From contig NC_057714.1 in NCBI RefSeq assembly GCF_004010195.1, positions 61,981,914 to 62,045,913 of the forward strand: DNA of 64,000 nt, written 5' to 3'. The stretch comes from Chiloscyllium plagiosum (taxonomy: Eukaryota). A program made the translations under genes and the position numbers. The first letter of the stretch is position 1. Every line of letters starts with the position of its first letter. A model generated the notes under the pieces. That model was not told the DNA's origin. It saw only the letters and a program-made list of their open reading frames with translations, and did no database searches. This document shows, piece by piece, positions 9,274-36,190 of the stretch.

Positions 9274-9281
9274 TATAAATA
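9274..9281 (+). promoter_or_regulatory. TATA box of BTD copy 1
   Basis: TATAAATA about 80 bp upstream of the ATG at 9359. Confidence 0.5.
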
Positions 9282-9358: not shown

Positions 9359-9571
9359 ATGGAGACATTTTTCTTGAGAGGGTTGCTGTTGTGTTGGCAA
9401 TGCTTTGTAATCCCAGTGTGGGGACTGGATTTTTACACTGTGGCAGTCTTTGAACACCCATCATACCTTCAGATAAACGTATCTATCGTTTCTACACGTT
9501 CAGAGGCACTGAATAGAATGAGGGAATTCCTGAATATCTACCAAGAGCAAGTCCATGCTGCAAGTAAACAG
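9359..9571 (+). CDS. BTD: Biotinidase-like copy 1, first coding exon (signal peptide and N-terminus)
   Basis: METFFLRGLLLCWQCFVIPVWG signal peptide, then YTVAVFEH (BTD/vanin AAVYEH motif); CAG|GTAAAA donor, 213 bp, phase 0. Confidence 0.9.
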
Positions 9572-9952
9572 GTAAAACAACTGATTTATCTAAACTAATC
9601 CAACCTTCCTGCACTTGGCCAATAGCCTTGATTGTTATGACACTTCAACAGCGCGTCCAAATACTTTTTAAAAGTGTGAGGTTTCTGGCCTCAACCACCC
9701 TCCAGGCAGTGCATTCCAGATTCCCACCTTCCTCTGAGTGAAAACATTTTTCGTAAAGCCCCCTAAACCTCCTGCCCTTCTCCTTAAAGTTATACCTCCA
9801 CATTATAGCTAAACTGCTCCATCCCAGGTGACACCCTGGCTATCTTACCTGCCAATCTTTGTGACCATTCACCTGGCCCTGACCTATTTTCAACCCTGAG
9901 GTTAGTCCACTTCCATTTGGATGTTTTATATCTGAATTTGCTTTTTGCTTTT

Positions 9953-10003
9953 CTAATTGTGGTCATACTAATTGTGGTCATACTAATTGTGGTCATACTA
10001 ATT
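9953..10003 (+). repeat. 15-bp tandem repeat (CTAATTGTGGTCATA x3.4)
   Basis: Read directly; just upstream of the exon 2 acceptor. Confidence 0.9.
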
Positions 10004-10026
10004 TTTATTTATGATCTATATTGCAG

Positions 10027-10176
10027 GGAGTTAAGATAATTGTATTTCCAGAGAAAGGTATCCATGGCTTTCATTTCAGCAGACCTGCTCTTTTTCCCTA
10101 TTTGGAGCCTATTCCAGATCCTAATGTTGTTCAATGGAATCCCTGCCTGCATCCAACTGCATATAATGATACAGAG
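10027..10176 (+). CDS. BTD: Biotinidase-like copy 1, second coding exon (catalytic Glu motif)
   Basis: TTGCAG| acceptor and GAG|GTAGGA donor; 150 bp; GVKIIVFPEKGIHG...WNPCLHP...NDTE. Confidence 0.93.
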
Positions 10177-10447
10177 GTAGGAGCGAGACAATGTTTGAAT
10201 TTGTTTATTTGTTTTTACATTTTAAGAATGTTTGTAACTTTTTGTGGAACTTTCAGTTATAACCATTTAGACAACACTGATTCTATTTTATACAGAATGC
10301 TTTACAAAAAGATTGACAGCCATTGTTTGGAATCCAAAATTAATTTTACGTGATAAATTTCTCTACAATTTAAAGCATTGTGTCTATGGAACTAGATTTG
10401 TATCACTATTAACATCTGAATTTTGAAAATGGTGCTGATTTTGACAA

Positions 10448-10588
10448 AGTTAGAAGTCAGGTAGCTGCCTGATGAAGGAGCAGTGTTCCAAAAGCTAGTG
10501 CTTCCAAATAAACGTGTTGGACTATAACCTGGTGTTGTGTGATTTTTAACTTCGTCCACCCCAGTCCAATACCAGCACCTTCACATCA
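10448..10588 (+). mobile_element. Penelope-like pLTR fragment in intron 2 of copy 1
   Basis: CTGATGAAGGAGC...AAAGCTAGTGCTTCCAAATAAAC family; flanking repeat TGATTTTGACAA (10436-10447, 10589-10600). Confidence 0.7.
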
Positions 10589-10609
10589 TGATTTTGACAA
10601 GTTAATGCT

Positions 10610-10794
10610 GTTGAATCATACTCCTGATATGGAGACATCTGATAAGGAGTGTGAATTGGGGATTGGGTTGTAATCCCTCCACCGATTTTCACCCATTTCT
10701 TAGTTGAATCATCTCCTGATATGGAGACATCTGATAAGGAGTGTGAATTGGGGATTGGGTTGTAATCCCTCCACCGATTTTCACCCATTTCTTA
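10610..10794 (+). repeat. Near-perfect tandem duplication of about 93 bp
   Basis: 10610-10702 and 10703-10794 are identical except for a 1-nt indel. Confidence 0.9.
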
Positions 10795-11468
10795 CTGGAC
10801 AGAAACCCATCACAGAAAATCCAATATGCACTCACAGCAGGTGAAGCTTTTTGCTGAATGTAATTTTGTAAGAATATCTCAAATATTTTATCAATTAAGG
10901 GAAGAGCACTGTGTTAAGGACATTGCCCTATGAAAGGTCTTTCAGACAAATGAAGCAATGATCAACCTTGAATAAAATTAAACATTCCCCAGCTGTTTCA
11001 TATTTAGACTGACAATTCTCTATTCTTCCTTTCCTCAGGGATCTACCTTCTATTTATTATAAAGTTCTTTTAATAACAACTCATGGAGAGAATAATTCAC
11101 CATTGGCTGAATCTCATGTTCTATTTAGCAAAGTGAGAATTCTGTTGAGACTTTTTGCAGGTTATTTTACCACATGTCTTCCTTGAAAATTGCTTCACCG
11201 CTTATAAAAATCATGAAGAACTGTGCAAAATGCTTCCATTGGAGTGTACCTTTGTTGGACTTGTTGTCTGATTCTGCTACATATCTCACTCATGTGCCCA
11301 TGTCACTCATACCCCAATAAGGTTCCAACCAACAATACATTAAATAAACCACTGCATTAAGATACCCTTTGGGAGTGAGGAAATTGTTTTGCAGAGAAAT
11401 GTATAAATGATCAGTTGTACTTTAATTATGTTAAAATGTAATGACTTTTCATGTCTGGTCTATTGTAG

Positions 11469-12632
11469 GTGCTTCATCAGCTGAGCTGTATGGCAAGGAA
11501 TGGCAGTATGTACTTGGTTGCAAACATGGGAGAGAGACAAACCTGTGAGCAAAGCGATCCCAAATGTCCACCCGATGGAAGATATCACTTTAACACAAAT
11601 GTGGTTTTTGATGCTGAAGGCACTCTCATTGCAAAATACCAGAAATGGAACCTTTACTTTGAATATGCTTATGACACACCCAAAACAGTGCAACACGTCA
11701 TCTTTAATACATCATTTGCTGGAAGATTTGGCATCTTTACTGGCTTTGATATATTGTTCTATGAGCCAGCAGTAAGTTTAATTGAGAATTATGGTGTAAA
11801 ACAAATTGTATTCCCTACAGCCTGGATGAACCAGTTGCCCCTCTTATCTGCCGTACAGTTTCATCAAGCATTTGCTACTGCATTTGGGATCAATCTTTTT
11901 GCAGCCAATCAGCATCATCCGGAATACAATATGACAGGAAGTGGTATCTACACCCCATTAGATTTCCCCTATTATTACAACTCCGAGAGCAGTGAAGGTA
12001 AACTTCTTGTAGCCGAGGTCCCTATAATCACATCCCGTCAAAATCACAGCCTACAACCTGAGGTGACGGCAGCGCTTCTTGAAGGGGACAATTATTTTGA
12101 AGCTTTTGTCCTTCAGAAGAAGGGAGAAAAGCAGGAACAAATTGGCCCAATGGAAAGAAATGATCCTGGTGATATTTTTCATAATATCATGATGTATGAT
12201 AATTACACATTTATCTCTTTGACAGGTTTAAAAGGTAATCTGCACATCTGTTCCAACAACCTCTGTTGCCATGTAGTCTACAAACGTAGCAATTATACAG
12301 ACGGTAATCTGTATGTATTAGGAGCCCATGATGGGCTTCACACAAGGCTTGGCACTTATTACACACAAGTGTGTACCTTGGTGAAGTGTGCAGGCTCCAG
12401 TTATGACACGTGTGGACAAAGTGTTACAACTGCCTCTGATATCATAGACTTTGGATTATGGGGGAATTTCAGCACAACCCATATTTATCCAGAAATATTG
12501 GCGGATAAGATGAAAATTTATCCTGCCGATACCAGAGGATGGGCTAACAGTAATTATTATATGATCAAGAAGGGGATGTCAGCAGGTCTTGTCACTGCAG
12601 CACTCTATGGAAGGTGGTATGAGAAAGATTAG
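11469..12632 (+). CDS. BTD: Biotinidase-like copy 1, large terminal exon (nitrilase domain C-half plus Vanin_C domain); catalytic Cys replaced by Gly
   Basis: TTGTAG| acceptor; CPPDGRYHFNTNVVF, YQKWNLYFE, GRFGIFTGFDILF, FPTAWMNQLPLL, MTGSGIY; ends ALYGRWYEKD* like BTD, with no vanin GPI tail. Confidence 0.95.
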   Translation: MLHQLSCMARNGSMYLVANMGERQTCEQSDPKCPPDGRYHFNTNVVFDAEGTLIAKYQKWNLYFEYAYDTPKTVQHVIFNTSFAGRFGIFTGFDILFYEPAVSLIENYGVKQIVFPTAWMNQLPLLSAVQFHQAFATAFGINLFAANQHHPEYNMTGSGIYTPLDFPYYYNSESSEGKLLVAEVPIITSRQNHSLQPEVTAALLEGDNYFEAFVLQKKGEKQEQIGPMERNDPGDIFHNIMMYDNYTFISLTGLKGNLHICSNNLCCHVVYKRSNYTDGNLYVLGAHDGLHTRLGTYYTQVCTLVKCAGSSYDTCGQSVTTASDIIDFGLWGNFSTTHIYPEILADKMKIYPADTRGWANSNYYMIKKGMSAGLVTAALYGRWYEKD

Positions 12633-13442: not shown

Positions 13443-13448
13443 AATAAA
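13443..13448 (+). promoter_or_regulatory. Candidate polyadenylation signal of BTD copy 1
   Basis: AATAAA about 810 bp after the stop codon, followed by a T-rich stretch. Confidence 0.45.
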
Positions 13449-14357
13449 GAGATTTGAATTACTTTTTCATGATCATTTCACCTGATGTTTAAGTGGACAA
13501 TTTAATTTTCAATTAAAGAAACTAAAAAAAGTGAAACAGTCTCAATAGCATCTGCTTAGCAAGGTGTCGGTATGTGGGAATAAAATTGAACATCAACACA
13601 AGCATCTATCAAATAACATTGTTGTTTAACTTGGGGGAATTTTGAAATGATAAAATGTTCAGCACAATTAAGTACCTTATTTTAGAAAAAGCAAAACATC
13701 ATCCAAAATACAGAACAAACAAGAACAGTTATTGTGCCAATATCAGAGTCCTTTTGAGATTGAGATAGAATCAGATGTGCTCACCTTGGGACAGAAGATC
13801 AAGGCAAGAAAATCACACACCAAATGAGAGGGAGAAAATTCTTAGGAAATATTTTGGGAATAAAGTGTGTTTGAATAATAGGTATCATATAGTAGAGTGA
13901 ACAAGTGTACACCCAATGATTTGCAGGGTTCAACTCCCATGGAAAGTTGAAAGGATTAGTTGAGGTTTGGGTATTTTACCGCAGTGAATGCAATGAGATG
14001 GTATCTTTAAAATTAAATCAGCCTGATGTGTGAGATAACAAAAGAACCCTACGAAAAATTCAGAACAACTTTGGCAGAATCTGAATTCAAACTGTTGTAT
14101 TAATTTATGATTTAATTTCCAAGAAGTCCAGAAAATTTTAGTGAAAGGCAAAGTAGATGAGGTGAGAAAATTGATAGCTATCCCTTGTATCCTTCCTGTG
14201 GACATTTTCAAGATAACTGTGCCTGATAATAGACTGGCCACAATATGATATAATGGGCCAATGCCAGGGTAGCTAAGGAGAGAGACAATTTTCTTGATCT
14301 GATAGGATTACTGATAGTAGGGAATTTGCATGTAATTGGGAATTATAAAAGTGCACA

Positions 14358-16695
14358 CAGAGTGGGACGATTGGGCGCCGGTGTTTTGGCATGACCGTTT
14401 GGGCGACAGCTGATTTGCCACCAACCTGTTTGGCGACAGACATTTTGGCGCTAGGAAAAAATGTTGATTGATTCATCATCATTCAAAGGTAGAATTTAAA
14501 AAGTTTTAAAACCATAACTTTATTGAAATACAAAAACATTAAATCTGTTAATCACTAAAAACTGTAACATAGTTTCATTTAGTTCATTTAGTAATTAGAA
14601 CTTTAAAAAGTTTTAAAGCTGTAACTTCATTGAAAAATAAAACATTAAATTTGTTAATCACTAAAAACATTAAATCTGTTAATCACGAAAAACTGTAACG
14701 TAGCTTTATTTAGTTCATTTAGTAATTATGAGCAAGGCTCCTTAAGTACTCGATAACATCCATATTTTCAAATCTAAGAGCAGTTTCATGTATTCTTCTA
14801 TCTGCATCTCTATACTTTTTTAGTTTCTGTGGTGGTTCATGCCCAGCTAGTAACCCTTCATAATATGCATCTCTAGCTTTCTGTACTGTATACAGGCCAT
14901 CTATTACTTTCCATATGGTGGGATGGTGCATGCTAAGTTCGTATTATAATCGACGGTGGGCTGCCTCCACATGATTTTTTGTGTGGTTTTCCACGATTAA
15001 TGTTCTCTGATGAAGGTTCCAAACCTCATGGAGAAATAGAGGAATTCGTCTTCCATTTCCTCATCTGTTCTGATGACCAACATATGTATCTTCAAAACCA
15101 GTTGAGTAAATCTTGAAGTTCTTGCGGCAGTTCAGTCGCTAGAGCATCCAGATATTCATCGATCTTGTTCAAAGGTACAAAAGCAAGGGCAATAATCATT
15201 CTAGCTTTTAACCCAAAATCAGGATCAGTGTCATACAAACTAGTGAACCCCAATCTAGCGAAATGTTTTTGCATATTTTGAGCTAAATGAAAAAAACATC
15301 ATTTTATTTGAACATCAGGGAATATGTCCCTCACAGCACTGAGCGCAGCTTGTTCAAAATAACAGACAATTGAAGTGGGTTTCAAATTGGGTTCAATTTC
15401 TTTCAATAACTCGAACATTCTCACGTATGTGGTGAGTTGCTTGTTGGACAAAAGAGCATACACTAGAGGGTGAACACCTTTGTGTTTTTTTGCCAGAATT
15501 ACATAAATCTGAGAAAAGAGGCTGGGAGCAATACTGAATGTGCCATTGGCAAACCACATATCAGATGTCACTAAGTGTTGGAGCCAGCTCTGTCTTCCGA
15601 AGATTAATATCTGGTTGGGACCTGGTCCGCTATCACACAGTAAAATATTTTCTTTCACACCTGGTTGAGGGACATATATTCTGTAGCATTCTGGCATAAA
15701 TAATTGTTGCAAATCAGTTGGATTGGTGGGGGCGTTCGTTACTGAAGTACGCTTTCTGTGAATTATTTTCCTCAAAGCAGACATATTAGGAATGATGTTT
15801 AGACTAGCTTGGGATATGCATTAGTGGTGCTGGAAGAGCACAGCAGTTCAGGCAGCATCTTGGGATATGTCTGTCAAACATTCATTAACAACTACAGTCG
15901 GTGACTCAAGAGTCTCCTCTGCTTTCTTGTCCAGCAGAAGCTTCATGCGAATGGCTGTTCAGCTCCCTCTCCACCTCTCCAGCTTTAGTATGGAGCCGTG
16001 CTTTGCACCGATGTCTTTGCTCACAACGCCAAAATTTCAAGTCGCTGTCAACTTTGCTTGTTTTGTCAGAGATGTAGAGGAGTCCATTATGCACAAACTT
16101 TTCTTTACCATGTTTTGTTAATACCTCCTCAGCCATCATATGCATAAAACAATAAAAAAAAGATGGCAAAAGAACGAAACACTTGTGAAAGCACACCCAC
16201 AGTTAACTCAACTGAGGCTAAGGACTAACTGTAGCCTGAGCAAACAGCTAAACGAAGAGAGAGCTAGTTTTCCTGTTTCCAAATGCGTACTAGCTTAATT
16301 TATACAAAGGAATACAAGGGAAGTGCAAACAGCAACATACATATTGATCTTTTCGAGGCTGCATGCTCAACTACTATATACAAAAACACTTAGTACAAAA
16401 AAATGCATGCAATTATATGTTCATATGTACAAGTAGTATATTTATGTTGAAATTAAATTATCTACACCATTTGATAAACATACTTGGTTATTCAACATAA
16501 CAGATGGTTATATAACAGATATATTGTAATTTTGTAACACTAAAGCTGTCCATGCAGACAGATTTACAAATAAAGAAATGTTTTTAGCGCCAAAATATCC
16601 GTCGCCAAATGGGCTGGCGCCAATTAGGTTTGGCGCCCAAATGGCCATGCCAAAACGCCGGCACCCAAACGGATGCGCCAAAACGTACCAAACCC
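14358..16695 (-). mobile_element. Mutator-superfamily (MULE, Phantom-like) DNA transposon, decayed
   Basis: Imperfect inverted termini of about 100 bp built from TTTGGCG(C/A)C repeats (14364-14460 vs 16580-16695); 9-bp TSD AAGTGCACA/AAGCGCACA (14349-14357, 16696-16704). Confidence 0.85.
14719..16140 (-). pseudogene. FLYWCH-MULE transposase pseudogene
   Basis: FLYWCH-like GKEKFVHNGLLY...WRC...CKARLHT; MULE core WFANGTF, PLVYALL, IVCYFE, CFFHL, NHVEAAHR, HPTIWK; split by stops and frameshifts. Confidence 0.85.
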
Positions 16696-22641: not shown

Positions 22642-22854
22642 ATGGAGGTATTTGCCTTGAGGAGCTTGCTATTGGGGTGGCAGTGTTTGGTATTGCCGGT
22701 GTGGGGGCTGGCTGGTTACACCGCAGCGGTCTATGAGCATGCAGCAGTGTTGAATCCACCCCGCAAAATCCCTTCCACACGCCAGGGGGCGCTGAGACAC
22801 ATGAAGAAAAACCTGGATATCTATCGGGAACAAGTCTTTGCAGCAAGTAAACAG
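22642..22854 (+). CDS. BTD: Biotinidase copy 2, first coding exon
   Basis: MEVFALRSLLLGWQCLVLPVWG signal peptide; YTAAVYEH...NLDIYREQV; CAG|GTAAAT donor; 213 bp, same length as copy 1. Confidence 0.9.
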
Positions 22855-26218: not shown

Positions 26219-26368
26219 GGAGCCAAGATAATTGTATTTCCAGAGGATGGTCTCCAAGGCTTTCAGTTCAACAGGACTTCCATTTTTCCGTATTTGGAAC
26301 CTATTCCAGATCCTAATGTTGTTCACTGGAATCCCTGCCTGCATCCAACTGTATATAATGGTACAGAG
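26219..26368 (+). CDS. BTD: Biotinidase copy 2, second coding exon
   Basis: TTATAG| acceptor and GAG|GTAGGA donor; 150 bp; [50 protein letters not shown] (not in the ORF track). Confidence 0.92.
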
Positions 26369-31172: not shown

Positions 31173-34100
31173 TCTCCGGCACTGTGATTGGGAGAGATTT
31201 CACTGGCTCTGTGCTTGGGATGGATTTCACTGGCTCTGTACTTTAGATGGATTTCACCGGCACTGTGCTTGGGATGGATTTCACCAGCTCTGTCCTTGGG
31301 ATGGATTTCCCTGGCTCTATGCTTGGGATGAATTTCACCGGCTCTGTGTTTGCGATGGATCTCACCTGCTCTGTGATTGTGATGGATATCACTGTCTCTG
31401 CGCTTTGGATGGATTTCACTGGCTCTGTGCTTGGTATGGATTTCACTGGCTCTGTGCTTGGGATTGGATTCACTGGCTCTGTGTTGGGGTGGATTTCACT
31501 GTGTCTATGCTTGGGATGGATTTCACTGGCACTGTGCTTTAGAGGGATTTCACCGGCTCAGAGTTTGGGAGGGATTTCACTGGCTCTCTGCTTGGGATAC
31601 ATTTCACCGGCTCTGTGCCTAGGATGGATTTCACTGGCTCTGTGCTGGGTATGTATTCACTGGCTCTGTGTTGGGGTGGATTTCACTGGCTTCATGTTTG
31701 GGGGGATTTCACTGGCTCTGTGCTTGGGATGGATTTCACCGGTTCTGAGTTTGTGATGGATTTCACCGGCTCTGTGGTTGGGATCGATTTCACCAGCTCT
31801 GTCCTTGGGTTGGATTTCACTGTCTCTCTGCTTGGGATACATTTCACCGGCTCTGTGCCTAGGCTGGATTTCACTGGCTCTGTGCTTGGTATGGATTCAC
31901 TGGCTCTGTGTTGGGGTGGATTTCACTGGCTTCATGTTTGGGGGGATTTCACTGGCTCTGTGCTTGGGATGGATTTCACTGGCTCTATGCTTGGGATACA
32001 TTTCACCGGCTCTGTGCTTGGGATCGATTTCACCAGCTCTGTCCTTGGGTTGGATTTCACTGGCTTTATGCTTGGGGAGGATTTCCCTGGCTCTATGCTT
32101 GGGAAGAATTTCACTGGCTTTATGCTTGGGGAGGATTTCCCTGGCTCTATGCTTGGGATGAATTTCACCGGCTCTGTGCTTTGGATGGATTTCACTGGCT
32201 CTGTGCTTGGGATGGATTTCACTGGCTCTGTGCTTCGGTGGGATTTCACCAGCTCTGTGATTGGGATGGATTTCACCGGCTCTGTGCTTGGGATGGATTT
32301 CACTGGCTCTGTGCTTGGTATGGGTTTCACTAGCTCTGTGCTTGGGATCGGATTCACTGGCTCTGTGCTTTGGAGGGATTTCACCAGCTCTGTGCTTGGA
32401 ATGGATTTCACTGGCTCCATGCTTGAGATGTATTTCACCGGTTCTATGCTTGGGATAGATTTCGCTGGCTCTGTGCTTGAATGGATTTCACCGGCTCTGT
32501 GCTTGGAATGGATTTCACTGGCTCTGTGCTTGTGATCGATTTCACTGGCTCTGTGCATGGGATGGATTTTCACTGCCTCTGTGCTTGGGGTGGATTTTAC
32601 TGCCTCTGTGCTTGGGAAGGAATTCACTGCCACTCTGTTTGGGATGGATTTCACTGGCTCTGTGCTTGGGATGGATGTCACTGGCTCTGTATTTGGGATG
32701 GATTTCACTGTCTCTGTGATTGGGATGGTTTTCACCGGCTCTGTGATTTGGATGGATTTCACCAGCTCTGTGCTTGGGATGGATTTCACTGGCTCTGTGT
32801 TTGTGATGGATTTCACTGGCTCTGTGATTGGGATGGTATTCACCGGCTCTGTGATTTGGATGGATTTCACCAGCTCTGTGCTTGGGATGTATTTCACTGG
32901 CACTGTGCTGGGAAGGGATTTCACTGGCTCTCAACTTGAGATGGATTTCACTGGCGCTGTGCTTGGGATGGATTTCACTGGCTCTGTGCTTGGGATACAT
33001 TTCACCGGCTCTGTGCTTAGGAAGGATTTCACTGGCTCTGTGCTTGGGATGGATTTCACCAGCTCTGTGCTTACGATGGATTTCACTGGCTCTGTGCTTG
33101 ATATGGATTTCACTGGCTCTGTGCTTTAGAGAGATTTCACCAGCTCTGTGCTTGGGGTGGATTTTACTGGCTCTGTGCTTGGGAAGGAATTCACTGCCTG
33201 TGTTTGGGATGGATTTCACTGGCTCTGTGCTTGGGATGGATTTCACTGGCTCTGTGCTTTGTTGGTATTTCACCGGCTCTGTGCTTGCGATGGATTTCAC
33301 CGGCTCTGTGATTGGGGTGGATTTTACTGGCTCTGTGCTTGGGATGGATTTCACTGGCTCTGTGCTTTGTTGGTATTTCACTGGCTCTGTGCTTGCGATG
33401 GATTTCACCGGCTCTGTGATTGGGATGGATATCACTGGCTCTGTGCTTTGGATGGATTTCACTGGCTCTGTGCTTGAGATGGATTTCACTGGCACTGTGC
33501 TTTAGAGAGATTTCACTGTCTCTGTGCTTGGAATGGATTTCACTGGCTCCATGCTTGAGATGTATTTCACCGGCTCTATGCTTGGGATAGATTTCACTGG
33601 CTATGTGCTTGAATGGATTTCACCGGCTCTGTGCTTGGAATGGATTTCACTGGCTCCATGCTTGTGATCGATTTCACTGGCTCTGTGATTGGGGTGGATT
33701 TCACTGGCTCTGTGCTTGGGGTGGATTTTCACTGCCTCTGTGTTTGGGATGGATTTTCACTGCCTCTGTGCTTGGGAAGGAATTCACTGCCACTCTGTTT
33801 GGGATGGATTTCTCTGGCTCAGAGCTTGTGATGGATGTCACTGGCTCTGTGCTTGGGATGGATTTCACTGGCACTGTGCTTTAGAGGGATTTCACCGGCT
33901 CTGTGCTTGGGATGGATTTTCACTGCCTCTGTGCTTGGGATGGATTTTACTGGCTCTATGCTTGGGGAGGAATTCACTGCCTCTGTGTTTGGGATGGATT
34001 TTACTGGCTCTGTGCTTGGGGAGGAATTCACTGCCTCTGTGCTTTGGATGGATTTCACCGGCTCCATGCTTGGGATGGATTTTTCTGGCTCTGTTTTTGG

Positions 34101-36190
34101 GAGGGATTTCATTGGCTCTGTGCTTGGGATGGGAGTTACTGGCTCTGTATTGGGGTGGATTTCACTGGCTCTGTATTTCACCGGCTCTGTGTTTGGGATG
34201 GATTTCACCGGCTCTGTGCTTGCGATGGATTTCACTGGCTCCGTGCTTGGGAGGAATTTCATTGGCTCTGTGCTTGGGATGGATTTCACTGGCTCTGTGC
34301 TTGGGAGGAATTTCACTGGCTCCGTCCTTGGCAGGGATTTCACTGGCTCTGTGCTTTGTATGGATTTCACTGACTGTGCTTGACAAGGATTTCACTGGCT
34401 CTGTGCTTGGGATGGGTTTCACTAGCTCTGTGCTTGGGATGGATTTCACTGGCCCTGTGCTTGGGATAAATTTCACTGGCTCTGTGCTTGGGAGGGATTT
34501 CACTGGATCCGTGCTTGGGAGGAATTTCACTGGCTCCGTGCTTGGCAGGGATTGCACTGGCTATGTAATTGGGATGGTTTTCACTGGCTCTTTGCTTGGG
34601 TGGCATTTCACTGGCACTGTGCTTGGGATAGATTGCACTGACTCTGTGTTTGGGTTGGATTTCACTGCCTCTGTGCTTGGGTTGGATTTCATTGGCTCTG
34701 TCCTTGGTCGGGATTTCACTGGCTCTGTGTTTGGGATGGGTTTCACTGCCTCCGAGCTTGGGATGGATTTCACTGCCTCCATGCTTGGGAGGAATTTCAC
34801 TGTCTCTGTGTTTGGGATGGATTTCACTGGTTCCGAGCCTGGGGTGGATTTCACTGGCTCTGAGCTTGGAATGGGTTTCACTGGCTGTGTTTTGGATGGA
34901 TTTCACTGGCTCCATGTTTGGGAGGACTTTCACTGGTTCTGCGTTTGGGATGGATTTCACTGGCTCCGAGCTTGGAATGGATTTCACTGGCTTTGTGTTT
35001 GGGATGGATTTCACGGTCTCTGTGTTTGGGATGGATTTCATGGGCTCCATGCTAGGAATTGGTTTCGCTGGCTCTGTGTTTGGGATGGATTTCACCGGCT
35101 CTGTGTTTGGGATGGATTTCACCGGCTCTGTGATTGGAATGGATTTCACTGGCTCCATGTTTGGGAGGGATTTCACAGGCTCTGTGTTTGGGATGGAGTT
35201 CACCGGCTCTGTGATTGGAATGGATTTCACTGGCTCTGTGCTTGTGAGGGATTTCAGTGGCTCCATGTTTGGGATGGATTTCACTGGCTCTGTGCTTGGG
35301 ATGGATTTCATTGGCTCTGTGCTTGGGAGGGATTTCACTGGCTCTGTGTTTTGCATGGATTTCACTGGCTCTGTCCTTCGGAGGGATTTCACTGGCTCTG
35401 TGCTTGGGATAGATTTCACTGGCTCTGTGCTTGGGAGTGATTTCACTGGCTCCGAGCTTGGGAGTCATTTCACTGGCTCTGTGTTTGGGATGGATTTCAC
35501 TGGCTCTGTGCTTGAGAAGTATTTCACTAGCTCTGTATTGGGATGGATTTTACTGGCTCTGTGCTTGGGATGGATTTCACTGGCTCTGTGCTTGGGCTGG
35601 ATTTCACTGGCTCTGTGCTTGGGATGGATTTCAGTGGTTCCGTGCTTGGGATGTATTTCACTGGCTCCGTGTTTCAGATGGATTTCACCGGCTCTGTGCT
35701 TGGGATGGATTTCATTGGCTCTGTGCTTGGGATGGATTTCATCGGCTCTGTGCTTGGGATAGATTTCACTGTCTCTGTGCTTGGGAGTGATTTCACTGGC
35801 TCCGAGCTTGGGAGTCATTTCACTGGCTCTGTGTTTGGGATGGATTTCACTGGCTCTGTGCTTGAGATGTATTTCACTAGCTCTGTATTGGGATGGATTT
35901 TACTGGCTTTGTGCTTGGGATGGATTTCACTGGCTCTGTGCTTGGGCTGGATTTCACTGGCTCTGTGCTTGGGATGGATTTCACTGGCTCTGTGTTTCAG
36001 ATGGATTTCACTGGCTCTGTGCTTGGGATGGATTTCAGTGGCTCCGTGCTTGGGATGTACTTCACTGGCTCTGTGTTTCAGATGGATTTCACTGGCTCTG
36101 TGCTTGGGATGGATTTCAGTGGCTCCGTGCTTGGGATGTACTTCACTGGCTCTGTGTTTCAGATGGATTTCACTGGCTCTGTGCTTGAGA
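31173..36190. repeat. 27-bp minisatellite array (about 185 units), bounded by assembly gaps
   Basis: Consensus GGATTTCACTGGCTCTGTGCTTGGGAT; translates as the 9-aa repeats MDFTGSVLG or KSIPSTEPV. Confidence 0.97.

Follow-up and report, generated by a model that had tools for sequence, protein, structure and literature searches.

The DNA analyzed here is a 64,000-nucleotide stretch of the Chiloscyllium plagiosum genome (contig NC_057714.1, positions 61,981,914 to 62,045,913; hereafter the window), in which a biotinidase gene is present as two tandem copies, termed copy A and copy B, and copy A carries a glycine at the position of the nucleophilic cysteine. Copy A has three exons joined at GT-AG sites that give an intact open reading frame (ORF) of 508 amino acids (71 + 50 + 387), as the first-pass annotation of the window had described, together with the cysteines and N-glycosylation sequons (10 in the mature chain and 9, respectively). 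The signal peptide listed in Table 1 was read from the sequence and a predicted helix at residues 2-16, not from a dedicated predictor. The translation contains the motifs FPEK (E80, K81) and YQKWNLY (K180) followed by G213, and is identical to the C. plagiosum RefSeq protein XP_043546944.1, named "biotinidase" (P0124 in our protein set). Two Pfam domains were detected, CN_hydrolase (PF00795, E = 1e-12) and the Vanin_C base domain (PF19018, E = 4e-30), and the AlphaFold model (predicted local distance difference test score, pLDDT, 84) has vanin-1 as its top structural match (template modelling score, TM, 0.83; 41% identity). By domains, fold and descent, copy A is thus a member of the biotinidase/vanin family within the nitrilase superfamily. 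Its nearest named matches are shark biotinidases, it has a glutamine at position 243 and a loop length of the BTD type, and exons of a thiamine pyrophosphate (TPP) enzyme, which we take to be HACL1-like, lie upstream on the minus strand; these features mark copy A as a derivative of BTD, not of VNN.

We then asked whether the glycine at residue 213 is genuine. G at 11742 is also found in contig L002, a second contig of the same genome, in an unspliced contig set (X17), and in X1, a single contig that lacks both introns and matches copy-A exons 1 and 2. Among the rows of a biotinidase search that have a residue at this position, Gly213 occurs in 4 of 187, all of them copy A of hemiscylliid sharks. 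The same four records are those with Lys81 (4 of 180 rows with a residue there), and they belong to three species, C. plagiosum, C. punctatum (two records) and Hemiscyllium ocellatum. An assembly error or a rare allele might be suspected, given that exon 3 of the window is a mosaic of A and B letters and that there are no raw reads over 11742, but the G in L002, X1 and X17 and the four protein records from three species leave it with a negligible probability, and an assembly error is refuted by the orthologs. The copy A orthologs of whale shark and zebra shark, on the other hand, keep Cys, with FPEN in place of FPEK. Of the other sharks compared, Gly is thus conserved in C. punctatum and H. 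ocellatum and not in whale and zebra sharks. None of the outcomes that the first-pass annotation had named as fatal to its reading, namely TGC at this codon, Cys in all orthologs, or no expression together with neutral evolution, was encountered.

Residues 80, 180 and 213 of copy A align with the triads given for human biotinidase (E112-K212-C245; PMC12467526) and vanin-1 (E79-K178-C211; PMC5541922). Measured against the Glu-Lys-Cys triad of an active biotinidase, copy A retains E80 and K180 and has Gly213 at the Cys position; in H. ocellatum, the three residues are E-R-G. Gly213 has no side chain with which a thioester intermediate could form, and without this intermediate neither amidase nor biotinyl-transfer activity arises. 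Since Gly cannot serve as a nucleophile, copy A should be without amidase activity, and the prediction that it is catalytically dead follows from established chemistry. The altered residue after the catalytic Glu (FPEK) was also correctly recognized earlier, Lys81 being confined to the four hemiscylliid A records. However, YQKWNLY had been taken for a damaged Lys motif, and this we reject: YQKW is normal, being present in most Cys-bearing, active galeomorph copies, and Lys180 is intact. Copy A does not resemble a pseudogene, as no stop, frameshift or splice loss was found in the three species and a spliced transcript was seen. Loss of an essential catalytic residue common to all four hemiscylliid A records, in a gene that is intact and, through the spliced X1 contig, transcribed, is what is expected of a pseudoenzyme. 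Note that the transcript evidence comes from one run (X1), listed as "DNA?"; the RNA status of the runs is guessed or unknown, and the splice joints are the evidence. The earlier claim is thus supported in part, in that a predicted dead, transcribed and spliced copy lies beside an active tandem paralog and is common to three related shark species. No credible Cys-less vanin was found among 114 vanin rows (112 with Cys, one gap and one out-of-register record).

Table 1. Positions of copy A and copy B features in the window.
Feature	Position	Strand	Remarks
TATA-like box, copy A promoter	9274..9280	+	CpG-poor (CpG observed/expected, o/e, 0.17); from a motif scan, putative function
Copy A exon 1, coding	9359..9571	+	71 aa; predicted signal peptide ~residues 1-22
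Copy A exon 2, coding	10027..10176	+	50 aa; Glu80 = 10051-10053, derived Lys81 = 10054-10056
Copy A exon 3, coding	11469..12632	+	387 aa + stop; Lys180 = 11643-11645; rest of nitrilase domain and Vanin_C base domain
B-type patch around Gly codon of copy A	11664..11949	+	Compared with copy-A contig X1
GGC = Gly213 at position of nucleophile Cys	11742..11744	+	In copy A exon 3
AATAAA, probable poly(A) signal of copy A	13443..13448	+	Judging from its length, the X1 contig would end near 13456
Copy B exon 1	22642..22854	+	CpG-rich promoter region (o/e 0.77)
Copy B exon 2 (FPED)	26219..26368	+	Run contigs link to Cys-bearing exon 3

To place the loss of Cys in time, we compared trees of the different exons. 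In carpet sharks, the tree of exons 1-2 separates the two paralogs (100/100 for A and 96/91 for B), while in that of exon 3 the copies from one species or family fall together (100/99 for the zebra-shark pair and 100/100 for the hemiscylliid copies as a whole), indicating that gene conversion acts on exon 3. On the evidence of these trees, exon 3 is homogenized between A and B, and Gly213 survived in all three hemiscylliid species despite this conversion. The paralog grouping of exons 1-2, together with the Cys of whale- and zebra-shark A, places the duplication before the split of these families, a split dated before the boundary of Cretaceous and Paleogene (K-Pg) (PMC8529718). Because whale- and zebra-shark A kept Cys, it was not lost at duplication; as reconstructed here, it was lost afterwards, on the hemiscylliid stem, that is, in the lineage ancestral to bamboo and epaulette sharks. 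The literature consulted gave no date for the Hemiscyllium-Chiloscyllium split. Y31F and N57F are likewise fixed in hemiscylliid A.

Position 243 bears on what copy A was before this loss. Most Cys-bearing FPEN-type shark copies have a vanin-like L or V there, whereas hemiscylliid A has Q; elsewhere, V, T or L occurs in 105 of 108 vanins and Q in 98 of 100 bony-vertebrate biotinidases. The FPEN-type copies of lamniform and carcharhiniform sharks additionally have a one-residue-longer loop of vanin-like length. Neither the Vanin_C profile nor a vanin protein found a vanin (VNN) gene in the genome, only the biotinidase locus being matched, which is not proof of absence. The ancestral copy A may therewith have been an amidase whose specificity had shifted. 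In lamniform and carcharhiniform sharks, biotinidase is present in two or three copies (P0007-P0013, P0126-P0136), some with K243 and a KWKLF loop, and Cys is present in all of those in which the nucleophile column was examined.

The active paralog is incompletely represented in the assembly. In contigs X16 and X19, copy-B exon 2 continues into an exon 3 that has T and so encodes Cys, and X10, X5 and X2 show the same join with a shorter piece of exon 2. In the assembly itself, only the last 141 nt of copy B exon 3 are present (L003:1500-1640, equal to G000:C5:62218057-62218197, minus strand). This remnant lies ~224 kb downstream of the copy A stop on the opposite strand, adjoins a 500-N gap and ends EKDCCC; its placement is likely a misassembly, by which the gene of the active biotinidase is concealed. 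Searching the genome revealed neither a third copy nor a retrocopy, exon 3 giving at least three matches and exon 2 at least two.

Since most of the last exon of copy B is absent from the assembly, exon 3 of the window is an A/B mosaic, produced either by a collapsed assembly or by a converted allele. It differs at 11 letters from the copy-A contig X1 and at 5 from the copy-B contig X5. The 11 X1 letters missing from the window all lie between 11664 and 11949, where the window agrees with X5; its letters follow B at 11664-11668 and 11801-11949, and follow A at 11742 and from 12523 onwards. The residues of X1 in this patch (N187, V188, N232, V239, F264, D274, D275, I276 and H282) match or resemble those of A in C. 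punctatum and H. ocellatum, so that a typical A protein carries more alterations than are visible in the window. The record still named "biotinidase" for C. plagiosum in RefSeq is thus the dead copy and, moreover, an A/B mosaic. At 12257-12375 of the window the copy-B contigs differ among themselves, X16 and X10 having B-type letters and X5 A-type, which suggests conversion tracts that are still segregating. X10 and X17 are both labelled organism B; exon 3 of X10 is only 12 letters from the window and the letters of X17 give residues of the more distant P0123, and these labels should be read with caution.

We next looked for traces of selection on copy A. In exon 3, 12 of 36 A-versus-B differences in C. 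punctatum and 16 of 30 in H. ocellatum fall within 43 pocket-loop positions; on the same measure, the counts are 2 of 18 in whale shark and 1 of 12 in zebra shark. The pocket positions derive from the plant amidase MtCPA, in which the triad and A239 loops are described as lining the pocket (PMC4812014), and were transferred by their offset from the triad; further loops were added to them. Among exon-3 columns conserved at 90% or more, A-specific changes affect 6 of the 18 that lie in the triad and A239 loops versus 8 of the 128 elsewhere (p = 0.0025), and a test of clustering that makes no use of the pocket gave p = 0.0065. In published work, islands of divergence that persist under conversion have been taken as a mark of selection (PMC3924837). 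Furthermore, 53 amino-acid changes have accumulated since the split of the three species without a single stop or frameshift, where 2.8-5.0 would be expected (P 0.006-0.064 according to the indel rate assumed), and the mature-chain cysteines and sequons are kept, all 10 and 9 of them, in the three species.

With these data we lean, without great confidence, towards copy A being a retained, secreted, non-catalytic binding protein of the vanin fold, that is, a pseudoenzyme. Several observations weigh against this, some of them in exons 1-2, which are unconverted. Among the three hemiscylliids, variable sites there number 13 in A and 7 in B, as compared with 2 in A and 10 in B between whale and zebra sharks (p = 0.012 for the contrast), indicating that A sped up after Cys was lost. 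The changes in A fall on conserved columns about as often as on others (5 of 13 versus 5.0 expected; 8 of 38 conserved columns changed versus 13 of 61 variable ones). The 10 differences from C. punctatum A, set against ~7 expected at the 2.5% intron divergence of X17, give no sign of a ratio of nonsynonymous to synonymous substitution rates (dN/dS) below 1, with the reservation that the counts are small and the species match of X17 was inferred from its letters. Selection was read throughout from protein-level proxies and not from codon-level dN/dS, and these proxies show relaxation in exons 1-2 where the first-pass annotation implied strong purifying selection. The pocket itself is not uniform, as H. 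ocellatum A has K180R, E186G and H412N and Chiloscyllium has A239V, and such differences among three species argue against one fixed small ligand. In a wider pocket the contrast is sharper (A-specific changes in 11 of 27 versus 3 of 119 conserved exon-3 columns), but this set was picked after seeing the data and made without coordinates. Finally, X1 is the only one among the examined run contigs that shows a copy A transcript (8 of the 24 listed runs were examined, and contig depths are not taken to rank expression).

The same observations could be accounted for if copy A were functionless and slowly decaying, its activity no longer being needed and its ORF surviving through the slow evolution of sharks and the repeated overwriting of exon 3 by active B. 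The acceleration of exons 1-2 after Cys loss, the unavoided conserved columns, the roughly neutral divergence and the additional triad loss in H. ocellatum all suit such decay, as does the replacement of L243, specific to the Cys-bearing A of whale and zebra sharks, by the B-type Q. We nevertheless regard it as somewhat unlikely, because conversion should then have restored Cys213 and wiped out the pocket differences as it did elsewhere, because the differences that remain are concentrated in pocket loops and leave out the conserved exon-3 core, and because none of the roughly three to five expected stops and frameshifts has appeared and a spliced transcript exists. If, instead, the amidase were harmful in the tissue that expresses A, selection might act mainly against activity, keeping the pocket broken and the rest loosely constrained. 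Divergence centered on the pocket under conversion, extra pocket lesions that differ between species and relaxed exons 1-2 would all fit, yet the same end could be reached just as well by a null allele or a lost promoter, and neither the ORF nor the transcript has disappeared from the three species seen; this explanation is improbable, and the least probable of those that concern the function of copy A. Hardly better placed, and quite unlikely, is a carrier or scavenger of biotin or biocytin in plasma or egg, which is a special case of the retained binding protein and was scored separately. The secreted biotinidase fold, the presence of Q243 as is usual in biotinidases (98 of 100 rows from bony vertebrates) and the ability of nucleophile mutants in the superfamily to hold substrates speak for it, and the variation of the pocket among species speaks against it. 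Covalent biotin binding by human biotinidase is, moreover, attributed to the active-site Cys, an attribution that was not met with in the literature searched. The genome also has two avidin-family loci (G000:C45:3866061-3868443 and G000:C24:22469948-22473485; L008-L011), and avidins are reported in cartilaginous fishes (PMC13425791). The carrier role for biotin, biocytin or pantetheine offered in the first-pass annotation accordingly gained no support; within the retained-binding-protein reading, carriage of biotin or biocytin would take up about a quarter of the weight, and the ligand is probably not free biotin.

As a retained binding protein, copy A might have arisen and persisted as follows. 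An old tandem duplication of biotinidase gave copies A and B, and the nucleophile Cys of copy A disappeared before bamboo and epaulette sharks diverged, while its transcription continued. Copy B, with its CpG-rich promoter, would carry out biotin recycling, and copy A, with a TATA promoter, would be expressed in fewer tissues. Copy A may bind an amide ligand uncleaved in its remodelled pocket, or a partner through another surface, and selection may purge those conversion tracts from B that would bring back the B pocket. The mode of a substrate trap is plausible since Cys-to-Ala mutants of related amidases hold amides uncleaved, as the titles of entries with bound amides indicate (PDB 6YPA, 4IZS and 5NY7). 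Taken further, and only tentatively, galeomorph sharks, for which no vanin gene turned up here, may have duplicated biotinidase and turned one copy towards a vanin-like pocket. In bamboo and epaulette sharks this copy would then have taken on a new function as a secreted protein of restricted tissue range that acts in binding or as a decoy, and its dead and remodelled pocket would be actively kept from repair by gene conversion.

Copy A resembles vertebrate BTD in its CN_hydrolase and Vanin_C domains, ~50% identity to mammalian BTD in exon 3, Q243, loop length and the TPP-enzyme exons upstream on the opposite strand; it differs in the Gly at the nucleophile site, Lys81, the altered pocket loops and its being a second copy beside an active BTD. 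Vanin-1, or pantetheinase (PDB 4CYF, 7SLV), is the best structural match, but copy A lacks the nucleophile, has Q243, and its chain ends EKD without the hydrophobic tail of the glycosylphosphatidylinositol (GPI) type. The closest precedent for the proposed repurposing is squid symplectin and its E-K-S relatives. As described in PMC5541922, these cephalopod paralogs (E-K-S or E-R-S) are duplicates in the same family with altered triads, one of them repurposed for a non-amidase job, but they keep Cys or Ser as a possible nucleophile, whereas copy A has Gly and belongs to a vertebrate lineage. Engineered Cys-to-Ala amidases of the nitrilase family with bound amide (PDB 6YPA, 4IZS, 5NY7, 8HPC) likewise have the nucleophile removed and the fold kept, but, going by their entries, they are laboratory mutants with otherwise intact pockets, whereas the pocket of copy A is further changed. 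Red and green opsins are reported as paralogs homogenized by conversion except at functional sites (PMC3924837), and differ in that the protected state of copy A is a loss of catalysis.

No earlier description of a dead shark biotinidase was found among the listed results of the literature search, subscription journals and supplements of genome papers being outside the search. If the proposed reading is true, copy A would be a natural member of the biotinidase/vanin family without a nucleophile in a vertebrate, for which the active sister gene and the orthologs with Cys offer ready-made controls, so that non-catalytic roles of this fold would be directly testable in laboratory-bred sharks. It is also a clear case of a loss-of-catalysis allele that persists under conversion from an active neighbor.

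As for the remaining features, the spliced X1 contig begins at 9322, downstream of the TATA-like box in Table 1. Intron 2 of copy A contains a 93-bp direct tandem duplication (window 10610-10794) and a high-copy repeat at ~10460-10590. Between copies A and B lies a fragment of a Mutator-like element (MULE) transposase (window 15302-15820, minus strand; PF10551, E = 3e-7), and downstream of copy B exon 2 there is a 27-bp minisatellite of ~185 copies (window 31178-36187), flanked by two N gaps and giving long spurious ORFs.

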